DNA of 48,422 nucleotides from Escherichia phage ETEP102: sequence record OR979723.1. One strand, written 5' to 3'. Of this stretch, positions 533 through 29,056 are shown piece after piece. The number at the start of each line of letters is the position of its first letter. The first letter of the stretch is position 1. Both the position numbers and the translations under genes were made by a program. Under the pieces are notes generated by a model that was not told where the DNA came from, searched no databases, and saw nothing but the letters and a program-made list of their open reading frames with translations.

Positions 533-622
533 TTTACGCATTAGTTACAATAAAATATCTATATATAACAACCATTTATCTATATTATTATTATTATATA
601 TATCTATGTATACTGTGTAACG
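533..622 (+). repeat. AT-rich ~88-bp element, copy A (second copy at 28967-29056)
   Basis: TTTACGCATTAGTTACAATAAAATATCTATATATAACAACC...ATTATTATTATTATATATAT...CTGTGTAAC; about 85 percent identical to copy B, same orientation. Confidence 0.6.
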
Positions 623-890
623 GTTGTCTAAGTGTGGCATCTGTCAAATTTGATAATATCCCCCACTAATATATAAGAGAGCCATTCCGCCAGGATAATA
701 GGGCCATATGCAGACAATCACCTTTCAGTATGCGTTACACGATATACCGCCTACTTACACCAGTCGTAGCGAGGCCTCCAAGGCGGAAATGTTTCCCGAC
801 CTGTTTTTTACATGCGATTACGGTTGACTTACGCGTTAACTCCCATCATAATTGCCTCACTTAAACGCAACAATCAAATGAGGTAACGAG

Positions 891-1427
891 ATGGATAAGG
901 TAACATTGGGTGATGTGATTCGCGAGATGGTACGCCAGGCAATTAAGTCCGACAAGAAGCTGTGCGTAGTTCCGGTTCGCAAGATATTCAACCTGGTAAA
1001 TGGTCATGATTATCCAGATGAAATACTGGACGAGGTGACGGGGGAGTACATGACTCCCGGGCGTGAGATCGTAGGTCTTAAAAGTTCATACATCTATAAC
1101 ACCGCAGCAAGAATGCAGGAGCTTCGGGATATTGATATGCACGTCAAGCATCGCTTTATCTGGCTGGCGTCAGGAGAGGAAACTGTAGCACGCAAGGCGG
1201 ATGGCGACGGCGCTGATAAGAACCTGTTAATCCAGCTTGAACCCGGGGCACTTAAGCCAACCAAACGAAAGACTGCAGATGTTGAGAGAGAAGTGGCAGC
1301 TATTGAAAGGTTCAAGGCTCGTCTGCTCAAGATCACACCAAACGTCATCGACCTGAAAGGCGAGCAGAAAGAAGGCGCTCTCATTGCCCTGGCACGTTAC
1401 CATGAAATGATTAAGGATACTAACTAA
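891..1427 (+). CDS. hypothetical protein (178 aa)
   Basis: ORF with GAGG about 9 nt upstream of ATG; no recognisable motif. Confidence 0.5.
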   Translation: MDKVTLGDVIREMVRQAIKSDKKLCVVPVRKIFNLVNGHDYPDEILDEVTGEYMTPGREIVGLKSSYIYNTAARMQELRDIDMHVKHRFIWLASGEETVARKADGDGADKNLLIQLEPGALKPTKRKTADVEREVAAIERFKARLLKITPNVIDLKGEQKEGALIALARYHEMIKDTN

Positions 1428-1987
1428 TGTTTAATTTCGACGAAGATAAATTGACCGATGAAAAGGTGATGGAAGTCGCCAGGCAAGATAACCTGCCTCC
1501 ACTTCGTGTGGCAATCAATGCTAATGGATACCGTCAATAATTCAAGTTCTGGCCCAGCGCCGAAGAGATGCTGTGCGTCAAGTTGAGCTACAAATACGGC
1601 GTCGTAGTGAGCAGGATTCGCCGCCAGTGCTGCAACGGGAAGGGAGTGTCTGGCATTCGATCTCTATACGAGGCAATCCGAAAGGTCCAGCCATTCGTCG
1701 GGCGCGAAGGGATTATGCATGACCTGACAAATAACATCATCCCAGCACTACAGGAGGCGGGAATTGTTTGCCTCATTGGCGATAAGATTTATGTGCATCC
1801 GGCCCTGGTGGGAATGTATGAGCGAGACGTGTACAACTGGTGCAGTCAGTACCGATCTGATGCGCCACGCTCTCACTACGTTGAGCCGATTAAGCCGACA
1901 ACCATCCATGGCTATGATGCCGATGAGGTGGAGAAGGCCATCCAGTTCTACCGGAAAGCGAAATCTCTCCTGAATGGTGAATATTAA
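1427..1987 (+). pseudogene. internally deleted remnant paralog of the P-loop ATPase at 44067-45650, with in-frame TAA at 1538-1540
   Basis: 1427-1537 encodes MFNFDEDKLTDEKVMEVARQDNLPPLRVAINANGYRQ (matches N-terminus MFDFNEDKLSIDQVMAVAAADNLPPLRVAINANGYRQ); same frame continues after TAA into ORF 1568-1987 whose GKGVSGIRSLYEAIRKVQPF...IGDKIYVHP matches the ATPase C-terminus; central P-loop region absent. Confidence 0.5.
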
Positions 1988-2199
1988 TGATTATAAAATG
2001 TGTGTATGTAAGGCAAGCCAATCACCACAACCTTTCAGTTGTAAATGGTGGGATATACTCGGCAAAGCCAATCCCTCGCTTTAATGGCTCATACTACATC
2101 AAGGTTGATGGCAATGAGTACATAGTGAAGACGATAGGTGAAGCTCTTATGATAAAGAGCCTTGGTGTGATAATGGCTAAATTCGAAATCGTTCGTTAA
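1987..2199 (+). CDS. hypothetical protein (70 aa)
   Basis: ORF; start overlaps upstream stop (TAATG). Confidence 0.4.
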   Translation: MIIKCVYVRQANHHNLSVVNGGIYSAKPIPRFNGSYYIKVDGNEYIVKTIGEALMIKSLGVIMAKFEIVR

Positions 2200-2217
2200 T
2201 AGCACGAATTGCTAAAC
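2199..2217 (+). promoter_or_regulatory. ATAGCACGAATTGCTAAAC motif copy
   Basis: Palindromic core TAGCA-N5-TGCTA directly after stop codon; 22 nt from TTGCTA to TATGAT (2237-2242); gene ATG at 2273. Confidence 0.5.
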
Positions 2218-2272
2218 AACAAATCGGGTAGTCAGCTATGATTACCCTATCAAAAACGAAGAGGAAATGATT

Positions 2273-2479
2273 ATGGAAACTGTACGCATTGACGATGTTC
2301 ACTTTGACCAAGCAGAGGTCAGCGTTCTGCTCAATCGGACTGGAGTAGTCAAGGCCGTAGTCTCCATTGACTTCGATACTGACGATCAGGGCGTTACCAT
2401 GATGCACTACACACCAGAACAAGCACGCAAGCTGGCGGCAGCGCTTATCCTGGCAGCAGAAGAGGCAGAAAATCAATGA
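2273..2479 (+). CDS. small protein, tandem paralog A (68 aa)
   Basis: ATG 2273 with AGAGGA 7 nt upstream (track start 2267); C-terminal YTPEQARKLAAALILAAEEAE shared with next gene. Confidence 0.5.
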   Translation: METVRIDDVHFDQAEVSVLLNRTGVVKAVVSIDFDTDDQGVTMMHYTPEQARKLAAALILAAEEAENQ

Positions 2480-2694
2480 GAGACATTCGAGTTAACTCAT
2501 CATGGAATCAGGAAACAGAAATCTCAGTAATCAAGGTTCCGTTCGGAAAGATGCGTAAGCGCGTGCACCTGGACCTTTCGCCGGATTCGCAAGTGGATGT
2601 CGCTGGCATGACATACACCGCAGAGCAGGCGCGCGAACTTGCTGCGGCGCTAATTAAGGCAGCTGAGGAAGTGGAGGCGGAAGTCGATGAGTAA
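2476..2694 (+). CDS. small protein, tandem paralog B (72 aa)
   Basis: ATGA start/stop overlap with paralog A; C-terminal YTAEQARELAAALIKAAEEVE. Confidence 0.5.
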   Translation: MRDIRVNSSWNQETEISVIKVPFGKMRKRVHLDLSPDSQVDVAGMTYTAEQARELAAALIKAAEEVEAEVDE

Positions 2695-2887
2695 ATTCAG
2701 GATCGCATTGATTGACACAACAACCGCCTTCGGTCATCCGGTCAAGTGGTATGACGTCCAAAAACGGGTGGCTTTGTTCTGGTGGGTTACAGTGGCCCAT
2801 GCAAGCCAGCTTTCCCAGGCTCGCTACTGGCTGCATAAGTCCGGCGCACCGCATCGCAAAGAGAAAGTAGTGAGGATTATCGAATGA
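2687..2887 (+). CDS. hypothetical protein (66 aa)
   Basis: ORF overlapping neighbours by a few nt (translational coupling). Confidence 0.35.
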   Translation: MSKFRIALIDTTTAFGHPVKWYDVQKRVALFWWVTVAHASQLSQARYWLHKSGAPHRKEKVVRIIE

Positions 2888-3174
2888 AGAAACTAATTTT
2901 ACTGGCAGCACTTGCTCTGGCTGGATGTGATTTCGGAAGCACCCGTGTAGATTCAGAGGCTCGGCAGAAGATGCCAGTGAATGTCAACGATCGCGTCCAG
3001 GTTGTGAAGATTCAGGAGTTCAGTGATGAACTGGCATACGAGAACGTCAGAGCTATATACGTCATCACCGATAAGGACACTGGTCAGGAATATATCGGCT
3101 TAAGCGGTGTCGGGATCGTGGAAGTTGGTCGCCATGGTTGCGGCAAGGGATGCTCCAGAGAAGATGAACGATAG
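2884..3174 (+). CDS. putative lipoprotein (96 aa)
   Basis: N-terminus MKKLILLAALALAGC: signal peptide plus lipobox LAGC. Confidence 0.55.
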   Translation: MKKLILLAALALAGCDFGSTRVDSEARQKMPVNVNDRVQVVKIQEFSDELAYENVRAIYVITDKDTGQEYIGLSGVGIVEVGRHGCGKGCSREDER

Positions 3175-3189
3175 CACTTTTGTTAAAAC
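3171..3189 (+). promoter_or_regulatory. ATAGCACTTTTGTTAAAAC motif copy
   Basis: Overlaps TAG stop of upstream gene; 22 nt to TATAGT (3208-3213) inside hairpin GGAGAC/GTCTCC; ATG at 3255. Confidence 0.5.
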
Positions 3190-3254
3190 TTGCTCGGAGA
3201 CATTAGCTATAGTGTCTCCTGTCAAGTGAACACAAACCAACTGAGGAATCACAT

Positions 3255-3413
3255 ATGAACAGCATCAACCGTTATATCCCTGTGTCAGTGCCAACCAGCG
3301 TCAATATTCACGGCGTCGGAATGCAAGCCTGCGACGATGGAGCATGGGTATCCTACGCAATGCATAAAAAAGAAATCGAGTCCTTACAGGCGCGTTTAAA
3401 GGCCTTAGAATAG
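3255..3413 (+). CDS. small hypothetical protein (52 aa)
   Basis: ATG with GAGGA 8 nt upstream, downstream of motif/hexamer module; below the 60-aa cutoff of the ORF track. Confidence 0.4.
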   Translation: MNSINRYIPVSVPTSVNIHGVGMQACDDGAWVSYAMHKKEIESLQARLKALE

Positions 3414-3494
3414 ACTCAAAAACATCAAATTTCTGCACCGTCGATTATCGCTGACCATGTTGAGCAGGCAATCAAAGAAGCTGTAGGTAAGCTG

Positions 3495-4061
3495 GTGCAC
3501 GAAGCATGTGAGCAATTACTCAAGGATTTGCCTAAGTACAATGGCGATCCGTGTCACAGCACTGTCGATGCATTCGTTAGTGAAATGGCAAAAGCTCCGG
3601 ATGATGGCGTGAAGTGTTATTACCTTGTCGCAGATGAATTGACGAAGAACGGCAAGTTCACTTTCGGTAGCAATTTCGGTGAAGGCAAGGCGCTCACCAT
3701 GTCAACCGCGAAAATGGAACCACGCATCGGCGGTTACGGGTATGGCAATCGTCACGTATGGGCGGTTGGTGAATGTGAATCAGCACGCGATCGCAAGGTG
3801 GCAGTTTGCTACCATGTTAATAACGGCAGTGCGTTTATCAATGGTTGCGAGTACGCGTATGAAATTGATGAATGCGAACCAGGTTGCGAGCCTCGCCTTA
3901 TCCATATCGCACAAGATGCATTCATCTCTGATTTAAAAGGCGATTACCGATGGAAAGCAAAGAGAATTGGTAAGGTTATGAATGCCAAGGCAACGCTAGG
4001 TGACGCATACGCAATAGTAAATCCTGATTGCGGCGTAGTGGCTAAGTTCTATATCAAATAG
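3495..4061 (+). CDS. Cys-rich hypothetical protein (188 aa)
   Basis: ORF in track; first codon is GTG (in-frame TAG three codons upstream), an internal ATG start is possible; many Cys/Gly residues. Confidence 0.45.
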   Translation: MHEACEQLLKDLPKYNGDPCHSTVDAFVSEMAKAPDDGVKCYYLVADELTKNGKFTFGSNFGEGKALTMSTAKMEPRIGGYGYGNRHVWAVGECESARDRKVAVCYHVNNGSAFINGCEYAYEIDECEPGCEPRLIHIAQDAFISDLKGDYRWKAKRIGKVMNAKATLGDAYAIVNPDCGVVAKFYIK

Positions 4062-4076
4062 CACCTTTTGTTAAAA
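4058..4076 (+). promoter_or_regulatory. ATAGCACCTTTTGTTAAAA motif copy with extended -10
   Basis: Overlaps TAG stop; about 24 nt to TGGTATAAT (4095-4103); ATG at 4135. Confidence 0.5.
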
Positions 4077-4134
4077 GGGGTGGTTCATCCTGACTGGTAT
4101 AATCCCCACATCAACCACACGAAAGGATAGCAAC

Positions 4135-4278
4135 ATGCCGCATCAGCAGAGTAACAACAAGTCATGGACCAAGGCCGCAAGGGCTAAGCGTCGCGGTGAA
4201 CTTAAAGATTTCTTTATCAGTGCAGGCCACACACGTAAAGTGGCATTACAATTAGCCAAACAGAGCGAGAAACAATAA
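4135..4278 (+). CDS. small basic protein (47 aa)
   Basis: ATG with GAAAGGA upstream; MPHQQSNNKSWTKAARAKRRGELKDFF...; stop overlaps next start (TAATG). Confidence 0.4.
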   Translation: MPHQQSNNKSWTKAARAKRRGELKDFFISAGHTRKVALQLAKQSEKQ

Positions 4279-4895
4279 TGAATCAGCTTTACACCATGAT
4301 TAAGCATCACCTTCAAACGGTAGCGGTAAACAAGAAAGTTTACATCTTTGATTACGATGGTACTCTGTCGGACAGAACGCACCGCCTGCACAAGCTACCG
4401 ACAAAGGATTTGCGCCTCACTGAGTCATGGCTTGAATTTAACTCATTGAGCAAGTTCGATCGGCCATTCCAGGAAACGATTGACGTAATGAATAGCCTGT
4501 TCGCTTCCGGAGCTTTCATCATCGTGCTCACTGGTCGATCTGATGCGGTTGTTGAGGAATCAACGCAATGGCTGCATGATGCTGGCGCTAAATATAACGT
4601 TCTGGTCATGCGCCGGGCTGATGACAACCGAAAGGATACCATCATCAAGGAAGAGTTTTTACGATACATTGGCTTGCACCGCATCACCGCAGCGTGGGAT
4701 GATAGCGTTAACGTTATTAAGCACTTCCGAAGCCTCGGAATCACTACCTATCATGTGTGCGACTATGGCGATAACGTGCACTCCGCCCTTAAGTCTCACG
4801 GCGTAGAAAAAGTTTGCGAGCACGAATTTAGCGAGCCGCTACCTCCGCATGGTGTTCGCCAGTGCAAAAAATGCAATCTCGTAAGCGGTAAATAA
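4278..4895 (+). CDS. HAD-family polynucleotide 3'-phosphatase (T4 Pnk phosphatase-like)
   Basis: DxDGT motif (IFDYDGTL), LTGRSD, RRADDNRKDTIIKEEF, AWDDSV: pattern of the T4 Pnk C-terminal phosphatase domain as recalled from memory. Confidence 0.65.
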   Translation: MNQLYTMIKHHLQTVAVNKKVYIFDYDGTLSDRTHRLHKLPTKDLRLTESWLEFNSLSKFDRPFQETIDVMNSLFASGAFIIVLTGRSDAVVEESTQWLHDAGAKYNVLVMRRADDNRKDTIIKEEFLRYIGLHRITAAWDDSVNVIKHFRSLGITTYHVCDYGDNVHSALKSHGVEKVCEHEFSEPLPPHGVRQCKKCNLVSGK

Positions 4896-4944
4896 AACTA
4901 ACCTTAACGGGCGCACATCGCGCCCACTACTCAGGAATATAAAA

Positions 4945-5562
4945 ATGTCAAAGATTATCATTCTAAACGGTCCTGCTGGCGTAGGTAAAGACACGATCGG
5001 CAATGCACTGGCAGCAGATTACAACTGCATCCCTACCAGCTTCAAACGTCCGATGTTTGAAATTGCAGCATCCATCCTTGGGGCCAGGGATTTTTCAAAG
5101 TTCATCACAGCATACGACGACCGCGATCAGAAAGAGCAGCCTCAGGGCTTTCTCGGTGGCAAGACCTGCCGTGAGTTCATGATCTGGATTAGCGAAACAG
5201 TGGTCAAGCCGCTTTTTGGCAATCAGCAGTTCGGCAAATTGATGAGCGAACATATCCGTCTGTGTGATGAAGGATTCTGTTTTGTTTGCACTGATGGCGG
5301 GTTCCCTGACGAAGTGATCCAACTCCTTGAAGATGGTCACGATGTCACCCTGGTTCGCCTATTCATGGATGGCAAGACTTTCGATGGCGATAGACGTGAT
5401 TACATTCGTCTTAAGGAATTGTACTACCCTTATTACAAGAAATATAACGAGCATGATGTGCATCTGGTTAATGGTGATATTGAAGGCGGTGTGCTGTCGG
5501 TTGTTAGAGCTTGCGGTATCCGTCCTGCAATCGACGAGTGGGCCGACGATATTCCCTGGTAA
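4945..5562 (+). CDS. P-loop kinase (candidate polynucleotide 5'-kinase partner)
   Basis: Walker A GPAGVGKDT near N-terminus; adjacent to phosphatase gene. Confidence 0.55.
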   Translation: MSKIIILNGPAGVGKDTIGNALAADYNCIPTSFKRPMFEIAASILGARDFSKFITAYDDRDQKEQPQGFLGGKTCREFMIWISETVVKPLFGNQQFGKLMSEHIRLCDEGFCFVCTDGGFPDEVIQLLEDGHDVTLVRLFMDGKTFDGDRRDYIRLKELYYPYYKKYNEHDVHLVNGDIEGGVLSVVRACGIRPAIDEWADDIPW

Positions 5563-5580
5563 ATAGCACGAATTGCTAAG
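5563..5580 (+). promoter_or_regulatory. ATAGCACGAATTGCTAAG motif copy
   Basis: Immediately after TAA stop; 22 nt to TATAGT (5601-5606); ATG at 5636. Confidence 0.5.
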
Positions 5581-5600
5581 CCCGCTCCGGCGGGTTTTGT
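5581..5600 (+). terminator. hairpin plus T-run (terminator-like, embedded in promoter spacer)
   Basis: CCCGC-TCCG-GCGGG followed by TTTTGTT. Confidence 0.45.
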
Positions 5601-5635
5601 TATAGTTAGTTCACACCAAACGAGAGGAAACAAAG

Positions 5636-5794
5636 ATGATTACTATCAACCTGTCAGACAAGCAAGCCGCCACACTGAAATATTTACTCGCAAGCCAGCC
5701 TATGCATTTCTCGGCCGATGAGTACTACGAGATGGTCAAAGAGGTTCACACTCAGATCAACAATCAACAATTCGACGAAAACGAAGGTGAATAG
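5636..5794 (+). CDS. small hypothetical protein (52 aa)
   Basis: ATG with GAGAGGA 7 nt upstream; MITINLSDKQAATLKYLLASQ... Confidence 0.4.
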   Translation: MITINLSDKQAATLKYLLASQPMHFSADEYYEMVKEVHTQINNQQFDENEGE

Positions 5795-5958
5795 CCATGA
5801 AGTTCAATAAGACCGAGAAGAAAAGTTGATCGCATCAATGATAAGCGCCGCCACCGCCGACTCTGCCGACAGTACGGTAAACTTCGATTCAATGAGCCTG
5901 GTATGTTCTGCTTTATCGCTTGGCGAGCAATGAAAGATATTGCGCGAAACCATAAGCG

Positions 5959-5979
5959 ATAGCACTTTTTGTTAAAAAC
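5959..5979 (+). promoter_or_regulatory. ATAGCACTTTTTGTTAAAAAC motif copy
   Basis: 22 nt to TATAGT (5997-6002) inside hairpin GGGGTA/TACCCC; leader CCATCGAAAC; ATG at 6033. Confidence 0.5.
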
Positions 5980-6032
5980 AATTCACGGGGTAGCGGTATA
6001 GTTACCCCATCGAAACTAACGAGGAAGCAGAA

Positions 6033-6254
6033 ATGAAAATTGAAATTATCGACGTTGACTACCAGGTAGATCAGATCGATCAGGGGGTTCTCACACTGCG
6101 TGAATGTGGTTTTCAGGTTGGCGATGTAGTAGAGGTATCCGGTCACTACGTTAATGGAGACTTGTCGATTCAGGCAATCCGTGAAACGGAGCTGGTTAAG
6201 GTCGGCAATGAAATCAGTATCAGTGATCATGAATACAAGGTGGTTGAGGAATGA
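6033..6254 (+). CDS. hypothetical protein (73 aa)
   Basis: ORF with GAGGAAG upstream. Confidence 0.45.
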   Translation: MKIEIIDVDYQVDQIDQGVLTLRECGFQVGDVVEVSGHYVNGDLSIQAIRETELVKVGNEISISDHEYKVVEE

Positions 6255-6589
6255 TTTACATACACACATACGGCGTCGGCAAGTTCGGTAAAGAAATACA
6301 CCGAACCGTCCACGACACGAAGGAATCAGCAGAATCGGCACAAAAAGTTCTCGGCGGTGAGTTCAAGGCTTACCGCGACGCAGAAGACTCTGTTGAATGC
6401 TGGCAGATTGAGCACGTGCGCAATATGCTGGAAAGTGAAGTGTCAGAGCTTATCGATAACATGACGAGTCACAGCCCTGGAGGACCATGGGAAGAACCAG
6501 GCTCACCGGAATGGTATTGTGCAAAGGTTGACACAATGAACAAGATCAGCAAAATCATTGATGAGGTGTACAAATCATGTTTGGATTAA
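6251..6589 (+). CDS. hypothetical protein (112 aa)
   Basis: ORF, ATGA overlap with upstream gene. Confidence 0.45.
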   Translation: MIYIHTYGVGKFGKEIHRTVHDTKESAESAQKVLGGEFKAYRDAEDSVECWQIEHVRNMLESEVSELIDNMTSHSPGGPWEEPGSPEWYCAKVDTMNKISKIIDEVYKSCLD

Positions 6590-6816
6590 CTGACCAGCAG
6601 ATGAACGCAGTAAAGGCCAAGGCCAAGCAATTAAACGCAGAATACAGCGCCCTTGATAAGAAGACCCGCAAGGATGATAAGCTGGTTGCGTCAATTATTA
6701 ACAAGCACCACGAGCCAGTATCAGTACTCATATCTCGCGATAAATTCGTGTGGATCGCAGGTTATCTCAATGGACTGGTTGGCAAGCGTGAAAATGGAGA
6801 TAGTATTTATGAGTAA
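6577..6816 (+). CDS. hypothetical protein (79 aa)
   Basis: ORF overlapping upstream gene end. Confidence 0.4.
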   Translation: MFGLTDQQMNAVKAKAKQLNAEYSALDKKTRKDDKLVASIINKHHEPVSVLISRDKFVWIAGYLNGLVGKRENGDSIYE

Positions 6817-6978
6817 ACTCAAAAAGCTCATTGACAGCCATCTCACTGACTGGTATCTTTAATCACGTACACAAGAGGCTACCAAGTAGCAACGAGCGGT
6901 TCGTAAGCCGCATGTGCAGTGAAGCAAATCGAGGCATTGTGAAAGCCTTACGGATTCCGTAACCGTAACTCATTCAAA

Positions 6979-7053
6979 GCTCCGCTAGCTCAATTGGATA
7001 GCAGCAACGACCTTCTAAGTCGTATGTTACTGGTTCGAATCCAGTGCAGAGCG
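6979..7053 (+). tRNA. tRNA-Arg (anticodon TCT), encoded CCA follows at 7054-7056
   Basis: Hand-folded cloverleaf: acceptor 6979-6985/7046-7052 (one C-A mismatch), D-loop with GG, anticodon stem 7007-7011/7019-7023, loop CTTCTAA, T-loop TTCGAAT. Confidence 0.75.
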
Positions 7054-7060
7054 CCAATTT

Positions 7061-7159
7061 CTCGGCGTTGCTAATATTGGCCTTAGGGTGGAGCTTATAC
7101 CTCCATAAAGCAATCGACAGATAATCGATGTAATGCAGGTTCGATTCCTGCCGCCGAGA
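7061..7159 (+). tRNA. atypical 99-nt tRNA-like gene, anticodon TAT (Ile, AUA) if folded canonically
   Basis: Perfect 7-bp acceptor 7061-7067/7152-7158, T-arm GCAGG-TTCGATT-CCTGC, encoded CCA 7160-7162, anticodon stem-loop TGGAG-CTTATAC-CTCCA; 29-nt region between anticodon and T arms with its own hairpin. Confidence 0.4.
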
Positions 7160-7177
7160 CCAATAACGAGGTTTGAT

Positions 7178-7357
7178 ATGTTCAAAGTCAAGCTGACGAT
7201 ATTGCTGATGGGCCGCACGTGCGCATCATGTAAACAGAACTTTGAGACAACCGTTCAGGCATTAAATGCCGAGGAAGCAGTTTCAAAGGCAAAGAAAATG
7301 AGCGGAGTCGATACGACGACTCACAAATTTTTAGTTAATTATGTAAGTGGTATATAA
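7178..7357 (+). CDS. hypothetical protein (59 aa)
   Basis: ATG 7178 with ACGAGG upstream; MFKVKLTILLMGRTCASCKQNF... Confidence 0.4.
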   Translation: MFKVKLTILLMGRTCASCKQNFETTVQALNAEEAVSKAKKMSGVDTTTHKFLVNYVSGI

Positions 7358-7578
7358 TGCTGACGTTTGTTTATGGTTTCTTGTTCGCTTCCGTCCTTAT
7401 CGTTTCGATGTCGTGCGCTTGGGATTCTCGGATTGTTAAGCGCGGGTTTCTTGCTCAGGCGCGATACGATGAGAAGAAAAAAGAGTGGCGCGTAGCCTGC
7501 AAGTTCATCTCAGTATTCAAAGAGATCGACGACATCCGATCGGGGCGGAAGCCTGGGGCCATAAAATACGTTGACTGA
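7357..7578 (+). CDS. putative membrane protein (73 aa)
   Basis: Hydrophobic N-terminus FVYGFLFASVLIVSMS; TAATG overlap. Confidence 0.4.
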   Translation: MLTFVYGFLFASVLIVSMSCAWDSRIVKRGFLAQARYDEKKKEWRVACKFISVFKEIDDIRSGRKPGAIKYVD

Positions 7579-7584
7579 TTTATT

Positions 7585-7609
7585 AAGCATCCTTCGGGTT
7601 GCTTTTTTT
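7585..7609 (+). terminator. rho-independent terminator
   Basis: AAGCATCC-TTCG-GGTTGCTT then TTTTTTT. Confidence 0.6.
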
Positions 7610-7621
7610 ATGCCTGCAATC

Positions 7622-7659: not shown

Positions 7660-8178
7660 ATGAAAGATGAAAACTTCACCAGCGCCGCTCAAGAGAAGGT
7701 GCGTATTGGCAACTTCAAGGAGCTGTACAATAAAAAGTATGGCGACATCGCCAACCTGAGCCATCGTCACCCAATGACGCCTGAAACTGTATTCAATCTT
7801 GCGGTTAAATATTTCTCATGGGCTGAGAGTCAGGCCATTAAGGCGATTGAAACAGCAAGTTTTCAAGGCGTAGTTACTGAGAACCTCGTGCATAAGCATC
7901 GCATTTTCACTTTAAACGGATTCTGCCTGTACTGCGGAGTTACAGCAAGCTCAATCCAGAGCTGGCGCGCATCACCTGGATTTGCTGAGGTCGTTGAGTT
8001 CATTGACGCTGTAATACATGAGCAAAAATATCAGCTCGCCGCTTCCAACCTCATCAACGCCGGATTCGTAGGTAAAGAGATCGGAATCGACAAGGCCGCT
8101 GAGGTCAACGTAAGCAATGTAGTGAATGACACTCAAACGATTGAGGATGCCGTGAAAAGCGTACTTGATAAGATTTGA
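7660..8178 (+). CDS. putative terminase small subunit
   Basis: 172-aa ORF at head of packaging module, upstream of large terminase; call by position only. Confidence 0.45.
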   Translation: MKDENFTSAAQEKVRIGNFKELYNKKYGDIANLSHRHPMTPETVFNLAVKYFSWAESQAIKAIETASFQGVVTENLVHKHRIFTLNGFCLYCGVTASSIQSWRASPGFAEVVEFIDAVIHEQKYQLAASNLINAGFVGKEIGIDKAAEVNVSNVVNDTQTIEDAVKSVLDKI

Positions 8179-8235: not shown

Positions 8236-8748
8236 ATGATTAATGCAAAGCAGTTGCCAGACCTATCAATTCTAAACCATATATTTGATTATGATCCTGA
8301 GAGCGGCGTGCTTTACTGGAAGAACCCAACCAGTAAGAGGGTGAGGCCTGGCCGTGAGGCTGGAACGCTGCATAAACCAAGTGGAAGGTTACAGGTTCAA
8401 ATATCAGGTAGCATCTACAAAGTATCAAGAGTTGTGTTTTACATGCACTACGGAAGGCAACCAGAAGGAGTTGTTGACCATGTTGATCACAACACTCTGA
8501 ACAACAGGCCTGATAATTTAAGGGATGCCACGATGAGTCAGAACGGAATGAATAAATCAATGCAGTCAAATAATACATCTGGATATAAAGGCGTTAGCTT
8601 CCATAAAGGCAGGGGTGAGTTTATAGCTTACGCAAAAGTTGACGGAAAGATGGTGTTTGGTGGGTGGCATAAATCAGCGATAGACGCCGCTTACTCAGCA
8701 GCAAATCTAAGAGAAAAATTGCACGGAGAATTTGTACATCATGGCTAA
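8236..8748 (+). CDS. HNH homing endonuclease
   Basis: VVDHVDHNTLNNRPDNLR HNH core; YKGVSF...FIAYAKVDGK AP2-like tail; inserted between terminase genes. Confidence 0.8.
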   Translation: MINAKQLPDLSILNHIFDYDPESGVLYWKNPTSKRVRPGREAGTLHKPSGRLQVQISGSIYKVSRVVFYMHYGRQPEGVVDHVDHNTLNNRPDNLRDATMSQNGMNKSMQSNNTSGYKGVSFHKGRGEFIAYAKVDGKMVFGGWHKSAIDAAYSAANLREKLHGEFVHHG

Positions 8749-15640: not shown

Positions 15641-15641
15641 T

Positions 15642-22024: not shown

Positions 22025-22027
22025 AAT

Positions 22028-22051
22028 AAAGCCTCCTAGCGGGGCTTTTTT
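22028..22051 (+). terminator. hairpin plus T-run, terminator/attenuator
   Basis: AAAGCC-(loop)-GGCTTT then TTTT, followed by GGAGG and ATG 22067. Confidence 0.45.
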
Positions 22052-22066
22052 ATTGGAGGTAATCAC

Positions 22067-22813
22067 ATGACACCTAAGTTTGAAAACGTCTTGCAGGGGC
22101 TTTTCCCTGGCGAGATTATGACACTGATTGACGTTGACGGGACGAAGTTCGGCGCTCAGGTCTACCGATTCCACAACGAGAACATCCAGTTTACGCCGGA
22201 GGAGATTCTCGCAGCCACGCAGCCAGGCGGGAGCCTTCAGCCAAAAACAATCACCTTTCAGGGAAATGAATATGGCGCTCGTCCTTTCGGCATATCAGGC
22301 ATTGACCTAAACGGTAACGGAAAGGCAGGAAAACCACAGTTAACCTTATCCAACCTTGATAGCCGAGTATCGGCCCTTATCCGATCCTACAACGGCATGA
22401 TGCAGGCTAAGGTGACTATCTGGATAACATCACGAGAAATGCTCGGCAGCAACGGCGATGTTTCCCCCGGTGACTTCAGAAAATACGTTTACTACGTTGA
22501 GAGACCGAACTTTGTGGATCAGAACGTTGCGCGATTTGATCTGACTTCACCATACGACATGGACGGAATCATGATTCCACCGCGAGTTACTCAGAGTGTT
22601 TGTTTTTGGGCACAGCGTGGCTGGTACAGAAGCGGCAACGGTTGCGGTTACAACGGAAGCAGGATGTTTGACAAAGACAACAATCCAGTAACAGATCCAT
22701 CCAGGGACGTATGCGCGGGAACTGTAACGGCATGCAAGATAAGGTTCGGCTCTGAAAACGAATTAGATTTCGGCGGCTGTGCGGTAGCATCACTTGACAG
22801 GAAAAACCAATGA
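22067..22813 (+). CDS. minor tail protein (lambda L-like)
   Basis: 248 aa; C-terminal Cys cluster CFWAQ...CGYNG...CAGTVTAC as in gpL-type proteins. Confidence 0.7.
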   Translation: MTPKFENVLQGLFPGEIMTLIDVDGTKFGAQVYRFHNENIQFTPEEILAATQPGGSLQPKTITFQGNEYGARPFGISGIDLNGNGKAGKPQLTLSNLDSRVSALIRSYNGMMQAKVTIWITSREMLGSNGDVSPGDFRKYVYYVERPNFVDQNVARFDLTSPYDMDGIMIPPRVTQSVCFWAQRGWYRSGNGCGYNGSRMFDKDNNPVTDPSRDVCAGTVTACKIRFGSENELDFGGCAVASLDRKNQ

Positions 22814-23535
22814 TTAACGGCAAAATCAAGATGGCAATCTTCGAACATGCGAAATCAGTATACCCCAATGAATGCTGCGGCGTGGTAACTCAAAAAGGCC
22901 GAGTGCAAAAATACTGGCCCATTGACAACGTTCACTCTGAACCGGAAAAAGGATTCCAGCTTGACTCTGTGCAATACGCCTGCGTTGATGATAACGCTGA
23001 CCTAACCACGATCGCCATTGTTCACAGCCACACCGGAGACGGGGCTACGACCTTACCAAGCGCTCACGACTTGTGCGTATTGAATGAGATGGAATTGCCT
23101 TGGGTGATTGTCAGTCTGCCGGAAGGTGACATGAGAATTGTTCATCCTGAAGCCATGCCTCTGATTGGTCGTCCTTGGTCGCTTGGATCTTTCGATTGCT
23201 GGGGACTGGTTATGGCATGGCACAAAGAGCACGGCGTAATCCTGAATGACTTCCGAAAGCCTTACGAGTGGTGGAAGCCTGAATATGGTGAGAATCTCTA
23301 CCAGGACAACTACATTAAAGAGGGTTTTATTGAAACCGGAAAGGATCCTGAACCTGGCGATATGATCATCATGAAATTGCAAGCTGAGGTATGGAACCAC
23401 GCGGGGATTTACCTTGGAAATAATCAACTCCTGCATCATGCATTTGGTAAGCTGTCAAAGACAGATATTTATTCAGGATGGTTCCAGGAGCATACGGTAA
23501 TGGTATGTAGGCATAAGGAGTTAGAGAAATGTTAA
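22810..23535 (+). CDS. tail assembly protein (lambda K-like, JAB/MPN plus NlpC/P60)
   Basis: HSHTGDGATTLPSAHD metalloprotease-like motif and CWGLVMAW...H cysteine peptidase-like motif. Confidence 0.7.
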   Translation: MINGKIKMAIFEHAKSVYPNECCGVVTQKGRVQKYWPIDNVHSEPEKGFQLDSVQYACVDDNADLTTIAIVHSHTGDGATTLPSAHDLCVLNEMELPWVIVSLPEGDMRIVHPEAMPLIGRPWSLGSFDCWGLVMAWHKEHGVILNDFRKPYEWWKPEYGENLYQDNYIKEGFIETGKDPEPGDMIIMKLQAEVWNHAGIYLGNNQLLHHAFGKLSKTDIYSGWFQEHTVMVCRHKELEKC

Positions 23536-24122
23536 AAACAATCAAGCTATCAGGTTCGCTTGGCCGCAGGTTCGGCGTTTTCCACAAATATGACGTTGAC
23601 TCATACCCAGAGGCTATCCGAGCGCTGTCATCTCAGGTTGCAGGATTCAAGGAGTTCATGCAAAGCGAGATCGGCTCTCGTATGCACTTTGCTGTGTTCG
23701 TTGATGGTAAAAACGTTGGGCCGCATGATGAATCAGCATTCAGTTGCGCGAAAGAGGTTCGTATTATACCAATTCCAACAGGCTCAAAAAATGGCGGTAT
23801 GTTCCAGATTGTTGTCGGTGCAGTGATGATGGTAGCGGCATTCTACACTGGCGGCGCCTCACTGGCTCTCATGGGTACATTCGCCACGTCAGCATTCATG
23901 ATGGGCGGCGCCATGGTCCTTGGCGGAGTGATGCAAATGATTTCACCGCAGCAAGGCGGCTCAAAGATGGAGGTTCAGAGCAGCAAGAATAAGCCTTCAT
24001 ATGCTTTCGGTGGCGCAGTTAACACAACGGCAGCTGGAAACCCGATCCCGGTCCCTTATGGTTATCGAACCGTTGGCGGAGCGACATTCTCAGCGTATTC
24101 AGTTGCAGAGGATATGTCATAA
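23529..24122 (+). CDS. tail assembly protein (lambda I-like)
   Basis: 197 aa with hydrophobic Gly/Ala/Met-rich central segment; position before J-like gene. Confidence 0.65.
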   Translation: MLKTIKLSGSLGRRFGVFHKYDVDSYPEAIRALSSQVAGFKEFMQSEIGSRMHFAVFVDGKNVGPHDESAFSCAKEVRIIPIPTGSKNGGMFQIVVGAVMMVAAFYTGGASLALMGTFATSAFMMGGAMVLGGVMQMISPQQGGSKMEVQSSKNKPSYAFGGAVNTTAAGNPIPVPYGYRTVGGATFSAYSVAEDMS

Positions 24123-24129
24123 GAACAAA

Positions 24130-24151
24130 CCCGCCTTGCGCGGGTTTTTTT
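24130..24151 (+). terminator. rho-independent terminator
   Basis: CCCGC-CTTG-CGCGGG then TTTTTTT. Confidence 0.6.
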
Positions 24152-24156
24152 ACGCC

Positions 24157-24164
24157 TGTATAAT
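24157..24164 (+). promoter_or_regulatory. extended -10 promoter TGTATAAT
   Basis: 35 nt upstream of ATG 24200; leader CACGAAAGG. Confidence 0.45.
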
Positions 24165-24199
24165 GAATCTTCTATAAATCGCACGAAAGGCTAAACATC

Positions 24200-27100
24200 A
24201 TGATTAAAAATAATGTAGTGACTGGCCGAAAGGGTGGAAGCAGTAAACCTCATACCCCACAGGAGATGGAAGACAACCTGATCTCAATCAACAAGATTAA
24301 GGTTTTGCTCGCTGTCAGTGATGGTGAGGTTGACGCGAATTTCTCATTAAAGGACTTATATCTTAATGATGTTCCTGTAATTGCACCCTCTGGAGAAGTT
24401 AACTATGAAGGCGTTAAGGCTGAGTTTCGCCCAGGCACACAGACGCAGGACTACATCAAAGGATTTAACGACACGGCGGCTGAGTTCACTGTAGGTCGTG
24501 AATTGAAAACAACTACGCCTTACGTGATCTCGGTAACGAATAAGCAGCTATCAGCCGTTCGCGTAAAAATCCTGATGCCTCGAGGCGTTACAACGAAAGA
24601 AAACGGCGATATGGTCGGGGTTGTCGTGAAGTGGGCCGTAGATATGGCGGTTGATGGAGGGAGCTACCAGGAAGTTTTGCTTGACACTATAGACGGGAAA
24701 ACACTAAGCGGATATGACAAAACTAAGCGTATTGACTTGCCGGCGTTTAATAGTCAAGTCCTGCTGCGGGTTCGGCGGGTTACTCCTGATTCAACTAATT
24801 CGCGCGTCGTTGACACGATAAACATACAGTCTTACGCCGAGGTTATTGATGCAAAGTTCCGTTACCCTCTGACTGGTCTTGTTTACGTTGAGTTTAACAG
24901 CGAGCTATTCCCGCAGATTCCAAGCATTAGCACGAAAAAGAAATGGAAGATCATCAACGTTCCGAGCAACTACGACCCAGTACTGAGAGAATACAGCGGC
25001 ACATGGGATGGCAGTTTTAAAAAAGCGTGGTCAAATAACCCAGCGTGGGTGCTTTATGATTTGATTACCAATCAGAGATATGGACTCGACCAACGAGAGT
25101 TGGGTATCGCCGTTGATAAGTGGTCGCTCTATGATGCTGGTCAATACTGCGATCAGAAAGTTCCTGACGGTCACGGAGGGTTGGAGCCTCGCTACCTTTG
25201 CGACGTGGTAATCCAGTCTCAGGTTGAGGCTTACAATCTGGTTAGAGATATTTGCTCAATATTCCGAGGGATGAGCTTTTGGAACGGCGAGAGCCTTTCA
25301 ATTGTCATAGACCGACCGAGAGAGGCTTCATACATTTTCACTAACGATAACGTCGTTGATGGCTCATTTGCCTATACGTTCGCAAGTGAAAAAAGCATGT
25401 ATACAACTTGTAACGTCACATTTGACGACGAGCAAAACATGTACAGCCAGGATATTGAGGGAGTATTCGACCTTAACGCATCGTTACGGTTCGGGCACAA
25501 CCCTACAAGCATCACGGCGATCGGATGCACTCGACGCAGTGAGGCTAACCGTCGAGGCCGATGGGTTCTTAAAACAAACCTTCGCAGCACGACGGTAAGT
25601 TTTGCAACTGGTCTTGAGGGTATGATCCCGATGATTGGCGACGTAGTGGCGATCGCTGATAACTTCTGGTCAAGCAACCTGACTCTCTCATTGTCAGGTC
25701 GCGTCATGGAAGTTTCTGGTCTGCAAGTGTTCACTCACTTTAAGGTTGATGCTCGCGCTGGTGATTTTATCATCGTCAACAAACCTGATGGAAATCCTGT
25801 GCGCCGCACGATTTCAAAGGTGTCGGCAGATGGCAAGACGATTGAGCTTAATGTTGGTTTTGGCTTTGATGTTCAGCCTAACACTGTTTTCGCAATCGAC
25901 AGAACTGACATAGCTTTGCAGCAATACGTCGTAACTGGAATCACGAAGGGCGACGGTGATGATGAGTTCACATACAGCATCACGGCGGTTGAGTATGACC
26001 AAAACAAATACGACGAGATCGACTACGGCGTAAATATTGATGACCGACCAACCAGTATTGTAGATCCTGACAACATGCAGCCACCTAAAAACATTGTAGT
26101 TTCATCATACTCTCGCATTGTCCAGGGGATGAGCGTAGAAACAATGGTTATTGGATGGGGTAAGGTTCAGTACGCAAGCAAGTACGATGTGCAGTGGCGA
26201 AAGGATAACGGTAACTGGATGAACGTACCGCGCACAGCAAGCTCAGAGGTTGAGGTAGAAGGTATTTATGCTGGTAATTATCACGTACGCGTAAGGAGCA
26301 TCTCAAGCGGCGGAAACACGTCCCCATGGTCTGACGTTGTCAGCGTTGGGTTGACTGGTAAGATTGGGAAGCCAGATAAACCAACGGTCATAACCGCGTC
26401 TGACGACCAGGTATTTGGGATCAGAGTTAAATTGGGCTTCCCGGAAGGTTCTGGCGACACTGCCTACACTGAATTGCAGCAGATACCAGATAATGGTGCC
26501 GGAGGTCACACTGGTGAGGAGAATGCAAGTCTATTAACAATGATTCCTTACCCTCAGTACGAGTACTGGCACTCAACATTACCAGCAGGTTATGTAAACT
26601 GGTACAGGGCGAGATTGGTAGACAGGATTGGGAACGCCTCTGACTGGTCTGATATTGTTCGCGGAATGTCAAGCGATGACGTTGAGTCCATCATTGGAGA
26701 AATAAAGGTTGATATCGAGGGTTCCGAGGGTTTTAAGTACCTACAGCAGAACTCCATTGATTCAAACGTAGCTATTCAGGCGCAAGCGGAATCAATCCTT
26801 GAGAACGCCCTTGCAAACGACACAGACGTACGTCGAATGACCAAGGAGAACGGCAAGAGAAAGGCTGAATACGTTCAGGCGGTGAATCTTATTGCCGATG
26901 AAACTCAGGCTCGCGTAGAGGCTCTCACGCAGCTTAAAGCGCAGATTGATGATGAGGTCGTAGCCTCAATAACTGAAGTTCAGACGGCACTAGCCACCGA
27001 AACGGAAGCAAGGACCACGGCGGATACAGTTCTGAGCGCTCAGCTTGGAGATACTCAGGCAGCACTGAATGAAAAGCTTGATTCCTGGGTGGATGCGGAA

Positions 27101-27580
27101 TCCGCTGGTGCTCAGTACGGTGTTAAGTTAGGTCTAAAATATAATGGGGTTGAGTATAGCGCAGGGATGAGCATGGAACTTGTTGGCAGTGGTGCTGGCG
27201 TTAAGAGTCAGCTCATCTTTGACGCAAGCAGATTCGCTATCAGTAATGGCATTGGATCTGGTTCCGGTCAGTGGGCATTGCCTTTTGTTGTTGAGAGCAA
27301 CCAGGTGTTCATACAGAGCGCCGTGATCAAGGATGGCTCAATCACTAACGCCAAGATTGGTAACAGGATTCAATCAAATAACTACGTGGCAGGTAGCACT
27401 GGCTGGGCGATTGATAAATCAGGAAGTGCTGAATTTAGTAACGCAACCGTAAGGGGCAACCTGTACGCAAACAGCGGAAACTTCGCATTCAACGGCACCA
27501 ATAACACGGTTCAGATTAACGGAAACGGAATCACTGTTAACCTGGCGAATGGTGGGAGGGTTGTTGTAGGAACATTCTAA
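24200..27580 (+). CDS. tail tip / central fiber host-specificity protein (lambda J-like)
   Basis: 1126-aa ORF following the M/L/K/I-like genes. Confidence 0.8.
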   Translation: MIKNNVVTGRKGGSSKPHTPQEMEDNLISINKIKVLLAVSDGEVDANFSLKDLYLNDVPVIAPSGEVNYEGVKAEFRPGTQTQDYIKGFNDTAAEFTVGRELKTTTPYVISVTNKQLSAVRVKILMPRGVTTKENGDMVGVVVKWAVDMAVDGGSYQEVLLDTIDGKTLSGYDKTKRIDLPAFNSQVLLRVRRVTPDSTNSRVVDTINIQSYAEVIDAKFRYPLTGLVYVEFNSELFPQIPSISTKKKWKIINVPSNYDPVLREYSGTWDGSFKKAWSNNPAWVLYDLITNQRYGLDQRELGIAVDKWSLYDAGQYCDQKVPDGHGGLEPRYLCDVVIQSQVEAYNLVRDICSIFRGMSFWNGESLSIVIDRPREASYIFTNDNVVDGSFAYTFASEKSMYTTCNVTFDDEQNMYSQDIEGVFDLNASLRFGHNPTSITAIGCTRRSEANRRGRWVLKTNLRSTTVSFATGLEGMIPMIGDVVAIADNFWSSNLTLSLSGRVMEVSGLQVFTHFKVDARAGDFIIVNKPDGNPVRRTISKVSADGKTIELNVGFGFDVQPNTVFAIDRTDIALQQYVVTGITKGDGDDEFTYSITAVEYDQNKYDEIDYGVNIDDRPTSIVDPDNMQPPKNIVVSSYSRIVQGMSVETMVIGWGKVQYASKYDVQWRKDNGNWMNVPRTASSEVEVEGIYAGNYHVRVRSISSGGNTSPWSDVVSVGLTGKIGKPDKPTVITASDDQVFGIRVKLGFPEGSGDTAYTELQQIPDNGAGGHTGEENASLLTMIPYPQYEYWHSTLPAGYVNWYRARLVDRIGNASDWSDIVRGMSSDDVESIIGEIKVDIEGSEGFKYLQQNSIDSNVAIQAQAESILENALANDTDVRRMTKENGKRKAEYVQAVNLIADETQARVEALTQLKAQIDDEVVASITEVQTALATETEARTTADTVLSAQLGDTQAALNEKLDSWVDAESAGAQYGVKLGLKYNGVEYSAGMSMELVGSGAGVKSQLIFDASRFAISNGIGSGSGQWALPFVVESNQVFIQSAVIKDGSITNAKIGNRIQSNNYVAGSTGWAIDKSGSAEFSNATVRGNLYANSGNFAFNGTNNTVQINGNGITVNLANGGRVVVGTF

Positions 27581-27583
27581 AAT

Positions 27584-27610
27584 AAAAGCCCCGAAAGGGG
27601 CTTTATCTTT
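27584..27610. terminator. bidirectional rho-independent terminator
   Basis: AGCCCC-GAAA-GGGGCT flanked by A-run and T-rich run between convergent genes. Confidence 0.65.
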
Positions 27611-28565
27611 AATACATATTTGGAAGGTATGGAAGTGACATTGAGATGTTTGTGTTGAATGGGAACTGAGCACCAGTCTGAGTCGAGTAGTTACCAATTA
27701 CGCTGCCAAACTCACTCCTAACGGATCCTCCTGACATTACAACTCCCTTGTATCGAAGGTTATTGTACCCGCCAGTTACCCTTGTATATGCGCCAGTCCT
27801 GAGTATTGGGAAGTAACCACCTCCTATTGACTGGAATGAGTTACTCAATTGAAGGAATCCACCAAGCACAAATGGCCTTTTAACGGTTGAGAAAACAACC
27901 TGACCTGAAGGATTCACTATGGTAATCCCCCTGCCTCCAACTGGAGCTGTGTTGTTGAAAATAACCAGATCGACACTGGCACTAGCCGCTACATTGTCAA
28001 TTCCTGTGTATGTATTGCTTCTACAGAGAATTCTTGAACCATCAAACTCAAGCGTCACGTTTGGATTATTCCATCTTCCGAAAGGAACGCCAGTAACTGG
28101 AAGTGTGTAGCTACCATTCACGGTAACTGTTCCAACATACTGAGCCGTTAAAAGCCTTGAGTTGGTAGTGATCGATACAAAATCAGTTGAGTCGGCAACA
28201 AGAATACCCTGACCAGTAGAGGCGCCCATCACCTCAAAGCAATTACCTGAGAAGTTTATCAACCTACCATTAGCGCCGTTAAAGTTACTAACGTTTATCC
28301 GTCCTTGCGTGTTTGATACGCGCTGGAATCCATTCAAATAATAAACCTCTGGTATTACATCGAAATCTATTACATCAACAGCCTTTGTTGGTAGCATGAA
28401 TGCAGTAGATCCGCTTGTGTGAGCAAGTCCAAATGTCAACCCACCATTTGATGAGTCAAATCCAGATGTTGGAACGCTTCCTGTTACGTTTGGCATTCTA
28501 AGTCCTGCCGTAATCTCCATCGCTGGCCTTCCATCATTCAGGTCGATTAGAATACCCTGTGGCAT
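27609..28565 (-). CDS. putative receptor-binding / tail fiber-like protein
   Basis: 318 aa rich in Gly/Ser/Thr/Asn/Val; ATG 28565 with AAGGAG 8 nt upstream (track start GTG 28574); TAATG-coupled to upstream lipoprotein gene. Confidence 0.4.
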   Translation of the reverse strand: MPQGILIDLNDGRPAMEITAGLRMPNVTGSVPTSGFDSSNGGLTFGLAHTSGSTAFMLPTKAVDVIDFDVIPEVYYLNGFQRVSNTQGRINVSNFNGANGRLINFSGNCFEVMGASTGQGILVADSTDFVSITTNSRLLTAQYVGTVTVNGSYTLPVTGVPFGRWNNPNVTLEFDGSRILCRSNTYTGIDNVAASASVDLVIFNNTAPVGGRGITIVNPSGQVVFSTVKRPFVLGGFLQLSNSFQSIGGGYFPILRTGAYTRVTGGYNNLRYKGVVMSGGSVRSEFGSVIGNYSTQTGAQFPFNTNISMSLPYLPNMY

Positions 28566-28807
28566 TATTTCCACTCCTTAGAGCCGTGGTCTTTAACGGA
28601 GCCGCCGTAACCGCCACCATTAGCCTTAATTCCGTCGTAGCGCACGTCAACTTCGCCGGAAGGTACAACCACACCATTTTTCCATTTAGCTACGCACGCG
28701 CCGTTTGCTTGCGTTGCACACCAACCGTCAGGACGATGACCTGATGAACAACCAACCGTCATGATTACTGCCGCTGAGATGATTGCTAATTTGATGAAGT
28801 TAGTCAT
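28565..28807 (-). CDS. small lipoprotein, Cor/Llp-like superinfection-exclusion candidate
   Basis: 80 aa; [22 protein letters not shown] signal peptide plus lipobox; GAGGA RBS; function inferred from size and context. Confidence 0.5.
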
Positions 28808-28873
28808 TTTGTATTCCTCATTAAGTTGTTTCGTTTCGATGGAGTAACTATACACGCAACGAGCGATCGAGTC

Positions 28874-28893
28874 TTTAGCTATTCGTGCTATTG
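28874..28893 (-). promoter_or_regulatory. ATAGCACGAATAGCTAAA motif copy (minus orientation)
   Basis: Minus strand: CAATAGCACGAATAGCTAAAG, about 23 nt, TATAGT, leader CCATCGAAACGA, then lipoprotein ATG 28807. Confidence 0.45.
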
Positions 28894-28966
28894 TATACGC
28901 GTAACCGATGTAACTCGATGTATACAATATCATCCGCGGAAAATGATATACGCGCTGTTACGCCAA

Positions 28967-29056
28967 TTTACGCATTGGTTACATTAAAATATCTATATAT
29001 ATCAACCTTTTACTCTTATTATTATTATATATATATTACTGTGTATATCATGTAAC
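28967..29056 (+). repeat. AT-rich ~88-bp element, copy B
   Basis: TTTACGCATTGGTTACATTAAAATATCTATATATATCAACC...ATTATTATTATATATATATTACTGTGTA...GTAAC. Confidence 0.6.

Follow-up and report, generated by a model that had tools for sequence, protein, structure and literature searches.

The best-described systems that resemble the element considered here come from several kinds of replicon. The virulent Bacillus phage SPP1, a siphophage with pac-type headful packaging, has two related and distant origins, oriL and oriR, in which repeated initiator-binding boxes, bound by G38P, accompany an AT-rich stretch. In the satellite phage P4, the cis elements ori and crr lie several kb apart, share short iterons and are read by one protein, alpha, which combines primase, helicase and origin binding. 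Archaeal oriC (origin recognition box [ORB], DNA unwinding element, inverted ORB) and the ori of Staphylococcus aureus pathogenicity islands (SaPIs) both consist of an AT-rich element flanked by short repeats, while the lambdoid OL/OR regions are a paralogous pair of control regions in which the short sites co-evolve with a Cro-type protein particular to the lineage. Here we analyzed a window of 48,422 nucleotides (Escherichia phage ETEP102, sequence record OR979723.1), which is a complete genome of a T1-like siphophage (Drexlerviridae, Nouzillyvirus-like) and carries an AT-rich element twice, once in each of two large intergenic hubs. Origins and control regions that combine an AT-rich core with short repeats are a familiar kind of element, although we found no earlier description of this particular pair in the literature searched. 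We tentatively favor the explanation that the two copies are paralogous replication origins, each consisting of an unwinding element flanked by candidate initiator sites.

Like oriL and oriR of SPP1, the two candidate regions are related to each other, lie far apart and combine short repeats with an AT-rich stretch; unlike in SPP1, the replication proteins found here were a DUF3987 protein that looks like an MCM-like helicase and a P4-alpha-type primase, and no search was aimed at G38P. The primase has the Zn ribbon typical of P4-alpha-type primase-helicases (PF08273), but primase and helicase are encoded by separate genes instead of an alpha-type fusion, and the motif sequences differ from those of P4. 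Two-sided repeats at an AT-rich core and an encoded winged-helix helicase with a predicted AAA+/MCM fold recall archaeal oriC and SaPI ori, whereas no Orc1/Cdc6 or SaPI Rep homologue was identified and the repeats of the window are shorter, less regular and putative. The pair also resembles OL/OR in being paralogous and in occurring in a genome that encodes a Cro-fold protein. However, there are no regular 17-bp palindromic operators over the −35 and −10 positions, an AT-rich core is not a feature of OL/OR, and the phage is virulent.

T1 belongs to the seven classical T phages, and phages related to it are often encountered, both in collections for phage therapy and as contaminants of laboratories. 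These phages encode their own helicase and primase while the origin is unknown in the family, which we count in favor of the origin explanation. The genome analyses of TLS (PMC11447400) and SU57 explicitly report finding neither an origin nor origin-like repeats, and the literature searched contained no relevant paper on origin mapping in T1, transcriptomes of T1-like phages or marker-frequency data. The pair described here provides the best candidates so far for the origins of the family, in the form of two elements of about 120 bp each that are present in every sampled genus, so that the long-open question of where T1-type replication starts is now directly testable.

The nearest relatives of the window are Nouzillyvirus phages such as ESCO41, TH30, CJ19, and GaoY1-9D, and its gene order is identical to that of T1. 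Hub 1 (170-890) is the counterpart of the point at which the ends of the T1 record meet, and hub 2 (28808-29322) that of the gap between cor and the exonuclease VIII gene. In annotated relatives, the hubs are the two largest non-coding gaps (e.g., 1-612 and 30971-31427 in ESCO41). A preceding examination of the letters alone (hereafter the sequence-only reading) had placed the two copies in the longest non-coding regions between diverging transcription units, and minus- and plus-strand open reading frames indeed diverge around each copy. It had also described a direct repeat of 533-622 and 28967-29056 with about 85% identity; by global alignment, 78 of 92 aligned columns (85%) were identical, and a repeat search returned this family with two copies only (525-594 and 28959-29028, 84%). 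Local alignment of the two 190-nt segments gave a score of 114, compared with 24.8 ± 5.3 for shuffles that preserved local base composition (z = 16.8), and a chance match of AT-rich sequences is therefore excluded. The parts of the two copies are as follows.

513-549, plus strand: left flank of copy A, with TACGC at 516, 525, and 535 and GTTACA at 544-549, spaced 9-10 bp apart.
550-610, no strand assigned: AT-rich core of copy A, with TATATA, the integration host factor (IHF)-like sequence TAACAACCATTTA at 566-578, and then (ATT)n(AT)n.
611-660, plus strand: right flank of copy A, with TGTAAC at 616-621, inverted relative to GTTACA at 544-549, and a weakly homologous tail, AAATTT..TAATAT.
28943-28983, plus strand: left flank of copy B, with ATGATATAC as the left arm of a 9-nt inverted repeat, TACGC at 28949, 28959, and 28969, and GTTACA at 28978-28983.
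28984-29042, no strand assigned: AT-rich core of copy B, with the exact IHF consensus TATCAACCTTTTA at 29000-29012.
29043-29095, plus strand: right flank of copy B, with GTATATCAT as the right arm, TGTAAC at 29051-29056, and an invariant tail.

The cores are 60-90 bp long and 88% A+T. When the stability of every 60-mer of the window was calculated (mean −82.4 kcal/mol, standard deviation 4.9), the core of copy A (551-610, −55.5 kcal/mol) was the least stable and that of copy B (28979-29038, −56.6 kcal/mol) the second least stable. On the left of both cores, three TACGC units and then GTTACA follow one another at intervals of 9-10 bp, the units being 5-7 nt long. Such motifs are concentrated in the hubs: TACGCG occurs seven times there and 21 times elsewhere in the window (p 2e-6), TGTAAC nine and 17 times, respectively (p 2e-9), and GTATACA is also strongly enriched. 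The core of copy B lies between the arms of the 9-nt inverted repeat ATGATATAC...GTATATCAT, for which P is about 0.02 relative to shuffled flanks. The IHF consensus WATCAANNNNTTR is matched exactly in copy B, where 0.02 matches are expected, and with one mismatch in copy A. Folding of the cores as DNA did not differ from that of shuffles.

We compared the window with T1 (Tunavirus), Rtp (Rtpvirus), ESCO41 (Nouzillyvirus), TLS (Tlsvirus), and Klebsiella phage NJS1 (Webervirus). In each of these genomes, as in the window, the lowest two stabilities of any 60-mer belong to one site in hub 1 and one upstream of the exonuclease VIII gene, with z values of 5.0-5.9, whereas the third-ranked 60-mer does not exceed 3.8. 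The unwinding element of iteron-type origins (lambda ori, plasmid theta) thus has a counterpart in every genome, and the two related copies stand at conserved places as in the SPP1 oriL/oriR type. The sequence-only reading depended on positional conservation among relatives, and both elements hold their positions in the six genera. In the six genomes, 236-314 bp separate the core from the first rightward start codon downstream of it at either locus; hub 2 of Rtp, with an extra inserted gene, is the exception. The exonuclease-Erf-SSB module of NJS1 has the opposite strand, and copy B is inverted along with it, its reverse complement aligning to copy A; therefore, the element is polar and moves with the exonuclease module.

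Inverted repeats of 7-10 nt surround the core in eight of the 12 copies (seven of them at P 0.003-0.02), and their sequences vary by lineage, for example AAATCTTACC/GGTAAGATTT in NJS1 and AAAAGAACA/TGTTCTTTT in TLS. Each lineage has its own hub-restricted motifs as well: the counts in the hubs and elsewhere were six and none for TGTAACA in T1, six and none for TCCGCGGA in Rtp, 12 and five for GTAAGAT in NJS1, and four and four for TGTTCAC in TLS. Within one genome, copies A and B aligned with scores of 114 (window), 141 (Rtp), 93 (NJS1), 66 (T1), and 63 (TLS), while equivalent copies of divergent lineages scored 24-59, below these within-genome values. Between close relatives, in contrast, equivalent copies were far more alike than A and B of one genome (313 vs 114). 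As judged from these scores, the two copies are in slow concerted evolution and not subject to frequent gene conversion, which is the expectation if one diverging trans-acting factor reads both.

The element is also conserved above its neighboring genes. When hub 2 was aligned among nine phages, 28978-29095 of copy B was 95-100% identical, whereas the flanking cor and exonuclease genes were 57-83% identical or had been replaced. The exonuclease of the window is approximately 51% identical to those of Rtp-like phages (e.g., vB_EcoS-2004V), while copy B is 98% identical to that of Rtp. Nine IMG/VR contigs (44-51 kb) contain a 25-nt core pattern, and five of these contain it twice. A BLAST search of E. 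coli genomes and plasmids with the copy B block gave no match, and in two more distant phages that carry the exonuclease, no intergenic hub precedes its gene; we count both absences in favor of an origin. Whatever the function, this is functional non-coding DNA that is left blank in current annotations and is more constrained than the genes next to it.

Several proteins encoded by the genome, the primase described above among them, are candidates for acting on the element. The DUF3987 protein (44067-45650, minus strand) gave a predicted structure with a pLDDT (predicted local distance difference test) of 89.8 and a C-terminal winged helix at residues 451-521. The top structural matches of the model were MCM subunits of eukaryotes and archaea, MCM2-7 among them (Foldseek E 3e-5 to 1e-3), and on this basis the protein looks like an MCM-like replicative helicase. 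A superfamily 2 (SF2) helicase is also encoded. A conserved putative transcriptional regulator (34607-35080, minus strand) has an all-alpha Cro fold at about residues 35-93, followed by a conserved C-terminal portion in which two cysteines are nearly invariant; a search of solved structures with its sequence gave no match. Its helix-turn-helix (HTH) helix varies among lineages. Six lineages are too few for covariation between the hub motifs and either the helicase winged helix or the regulator HTH to be decisive. As a separate observation on the primase gene (33626-34549, minus strand), its product is 47% identical to that of ESCO41 (L004 36218-37159) but 90% identical to the Rtp primase, from which it follows that the gene was exchanged between lineages; the helicase and the regulator are 97-98% identical between the window and ESCO41.

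If the copies are origins, a phage initiator, either the MCM-like DUF3987 helicase through its C-terminal winged helix or another early protein, would bind the motifs that flank the core. The left motifs are phased at about one helical turn and the motifs are often inverted across the core, and in the lineage of the window an IHF-type site might bend copy B. Each element lies upstream of a putative strong immediate-early promoter, and early transcription from these nearby promoters would add negative supercoiling and help the core to melt, after which the helicase and the P4-alpha-type primase would load at the opened DNA and initiate replication. The first origin would then adjoin the region from which the records of T1, Rtp, and ESCO41 begin, and the second would head the exonuclease VIII-Erf-SSB recombination operon. 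The origin explanation would account for the extreme and conserved instability, for the lineage-specific motifs present in both copies, for the concerted evolution and for the conservation above that of coding sequence. Extended to T1-like phages as a whole, the scheme of dual, co-evolving origins with AT-rich cores and lineage-specific repeats, opened with the assistance of transcription and served by an MCM-like phage helicase, is a proposal we make with slightly more reserve. If correct, it would be the first identification of origins in the family of T1 and would supply the cis half of a replisome with an MCM-like helicase and a P4-type primase, as well as parts for phage engineering or phage-dependent plasmids.

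The hubs share more than the repeat. The sequence-only reading had described an element of about 88 bp; the repeat itself stands, but the homology is wider and consists of collinear blocks that together cover about 400 bp (449-852 to 28893-29289), whose outer features are as follows.

449-460, plus strand: left-boundary motif of hub 1, GCATACGCGTAA.
28893-28904, plus strand: left-boundary motif of hub 2, GTATACGCGTAA.
736-765, plus strand: shared downstream block of hub 1, TACACGATATAC..CTACTTACA.
29154-29178, plus strand: shared downstream block of hub 2, TACACGATATAC..TATTTACA.
824-852, plus strand: rightward sigma-70-like promoter of hub 1, TTGACT-17-CATAAT, upstream of the DUF7174 gene (891-1427).
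29262-29289, plus strand: rightward sigma-70-like promoter of hub 2, TTGACT-16-TATAGT, upstream of the exonuclease VIII gene (29323-30363).

The left-boundary 12-mer was matched four times in the hubs and once elsewhere when up to two mismatches were allowed; related copies lie at 829, 28893, and 29246, of which those at 829 and 29246 are at the rightward promoters. The TACACGATATAC block lies approximately 100 bp right of the core and is an exact 12-mer common to hub 1 and 29154-29165. In TLS, the equivalents of the two rightward promoters are listed as P01 (hub 1) and P51 (hub 2), and they make up two of just three sigma-70-like intergenic promoters listed there, one of the three driving the TLS regulator (PMC11447400).

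This wider paralogy brings in the strongest alternative, in which the element controls early transcription. The core would be an upstream activating or architectural element (UP-like, curved, and bound by IHF or Fis) or a strong early promoter serving two rightward immediate-early operons, and the hub motifs would be operators of a phage regulator that co-evolve like those of lambdoid OL/OR. We regard this alternative as possible but doubtful. A number of observations weigh against an origin and bear on this choice. The near-constant distance of 236-314 bp to the rightward gene, the polarity, and the co-inversion in NJS1 fit a transcriptional role at least as well, as does the extension of the paralogy into the promoter region. 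The flanking motifs are short, and the inverted repeat that flanks the core of copy A is only 6 nt long and not significant (P = 0.31). The IHF consensus is convincing solely in the B copies of one lineage: these copies of the window, ESCO41, and Rtp match it exactly (0.02-0.04 expected) and the corresponding A copies with one mismatch, whereas no match was found in T1 or in copy A of NJS1, and the one-mismatch sites in copy B of NJS1 and in both TLS copies are at chance level. A search of solved structures with the DUF3987 sequence found nothing, the P4 alpha chain included, and the third (recognition) helix of the helicase winged helix is conserved instead of varying with the lineage. GC skew was rejected as evidence for an origin; the cumulative minimum falls in hub 1 in the six genomes, but the sign of the skew follows gene orientation block by block.

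Transcriptional control in turn accounts less well for several features of the cores. Matches to −35 and −10 sequences exist in both cores, but their numbers are those expected from shuffles (six vs 3.7 ± 1.9 and five vs 3.7 ± 2.0) and their positions are out of register between A and B; in consensus scans of both hubs, sigma-70 counts were likewise at shuffle level except for the two rightward promoters. The flanking genes each have their own, closer promoter, and the promoter region of the regulator itself lacks the hub motifs. Furthermore, a core of 60-90 bp at 88% A+T with 120 invariant bp exceeds what a promoter needs, and in Rtp and CEB_EC3a the promoter-proximal part has been replaced while the core block is invariant. 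The anatomy fits an origin somewhat better than a regulatory element. The two explanations could both hold for one composite region, and if transcriptional control proves correct, the elements define the immediate-early switch of the family. Two of the three functions that the sequence-only reading had offered for the element, replication origin and regulatory element, are viable, while the third, packaging, is unlikely, as discussed below.

Among the remaining explanations, a functionless recombination junction or linker, kept similar by homologous exchange and gene conversion, is very unlikely. The invariant block does separate non-homologous cassettes, and ESCO41 and CEB_EC3a have a Rha-like gene or rtp46 beside it. 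However, the excess of similarity between equivalent copies of close relatives over that between A and B argues that gene conversion is infrequent, and lineages whose sequences can no longer be aligned again show the extreme base composition, the pair of loci, and the arrangement of flanking motifs.

A packaging signal, with the element as part of a pac or terminase-binding region, is even harder to sustain. Copy A is approximately 250 bp from the start of the T1, Rtp, and ESCO41 records, and positions 1-2800 of the T1 record are marked as a terminal repeat. These record starts, however, point to a separate feature.

264-383, no strand assigned: TTGCA/TGCAA array and G6 run, in hub 1 only and outside the repeated element.

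The array contains two 32-nt units (264-295 and 341-372) and GGGGGG at 378-383, lies to the left of copy A, and is approximately 7 kb from terS (7660-8178). The GenBank records of T1, Rtp, ESCO41, and XT34 start within the homologous array, and on such sequence evidence the array is probably the pac cleavage, terminase recognition or end region. For the AT-rich cores, the corresponding comparison was negative, the record starts of T1, Rtp, and ESCO41 lying in the array (264-372) and outside the core. Copy B is 28 kb away in a hub that lacks the array, and with another pac inside the genome, the packaging series, reported to be single in T1 and TLS, would be disrupted.

We give still less credence to a small non-coding RNA gene or structured leader. 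Such a gene could explain the conservation of about 300 bp of non-coding DNA, and a terminator-like hairpin is present at 29187-29203 on the plus strand, but the hairpin is not conserved in Rtp or CEB_EC3a, no part of the hubs matched Rfam at the gathering score (a scan of the whole window returned just a tRNA), and folding downstream of the cores was no better than that of shuffles (z +0.14 and −0.86). The least credible explanation is a miniature mobile element with terminal inverted repeats (like a miniature inverted-repeat transposable element), suggested by the two copies and the inverted repeats around the core, because six genera carry the element at both loci in an unchanged gene-order context, host genomes and plasmids lack it, and about 100 relatives show no presence/absence polymorphism.

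A second sequence shared by the hubs proved to belong to a different system. The sequence-only reading had reported the 17-mer TCGTTTCGATGGAGTAA at 192-208 and 28831-28847; the second position is as given, but the first copy lies at 193-209. Its use as a link specific to the hubs fails, since its core CATCGAAACGA occurs 10 times in the window at up to one mismatch where 1.1 are expected. The 17-mer is the downstream part of a family-wide, promoter-associated ATAGCAC-box module, with which it recurs throughout the non-structural regions. The order within the module is ATAGCAC-N3-TTGNTAAA, about 20 nt, a −10-like TATxxT, CATCGAAACGA, and a ribosome-binding site. The modules are as follows.

2199, 4058, 5563, 5959, 30360, 33561, 35093, 38168, 39616, and 41627, plus strand: ATAGCAC modules.
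28891, 46154, 47756, and 254, minus strand: ATAGCAC modules.
193-254, minus strand: leftward ATAGCAC module of hub 1, with the box at 237-254, the −10-like TATTAT, and CATCGAAACGA at 193-203; it includes the 17-mer.
28831-28891, minus strand: leftward ATAGCAC module of hub 2, with the box at 28874-28891, TATAGT, and CATCGAAACGA at 28831-28841; it includes the 17-mer.

We found 13 boxes at up to two mismatches (0.39 expected) in addition to a degenerate one in hub 1. All are in non-structural regions, upstream of a start codon and in the same orientation as the genes, and none is in the structural region (8-28 kb). From its placement, the module is predicted to drive the leftward genes in both hubs. 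The box corresponds to the 21-nt direct repeat of Drexlerviridae, aaATAGCACnnnTTGnTAAAA, which is described for TLS, T1, Rtp, and Rogue1 with its function given as unknown (PMC11447400), and the 17-mer lies 30-40 nt downstream of this box in both hubs. With at least 14 copies genome-wide, the module is separate from the two-copy AT-rich element. The hairpin and downstream box of the module do not appear in the available part of the TLS paper (PMC11447400).

The ATAGCAC box is a TAGCA-N5-TGCTA dyad located 21-23 nt upstream of the −10-like hexamer, too distant for a normal −35 sequence; because of the dyad, it is a plausible target of a Cro-like dimer. The −10-like hexamer often lies within or after a short GC-rich hairpin, and CATCGAAACGA comes next.

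Several other features of the window were observed. A tRNA gene lies in the early region at 6979-7053 (Rfam 53.7 bits), and a tRNA-Arg(tct) is annotated in the early region of ESCO41. Genes for HNH endonucleases are inserted between terS and terL (8236-8748) and after the SF2 helicase gene (37272-37769). Two inverted-repeat pairs, I1 (1412-1536 and 45541-45665) and I2 (37431-37511 and 43847-43927), are each 74% complementary. Finally, a perfect 33-nt inverted repeat (AAAATAAAAGCCCCGAAAGGGGCTTTATCTTTA) is present at 27579-27611 and 31579-31611. Both arms are bidirectional terminator hairpins, each located where convergent genes meet, and together they enclose the segment that runs from a membrane protein gene through cor, hub 2, and the exonuclease VIII gene to Erf and SSB. 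Because hub 2 and the exonuclease module are oppositely oriented in the Webervirus NJS1, the 33-nt arms could be substrates for inversion.

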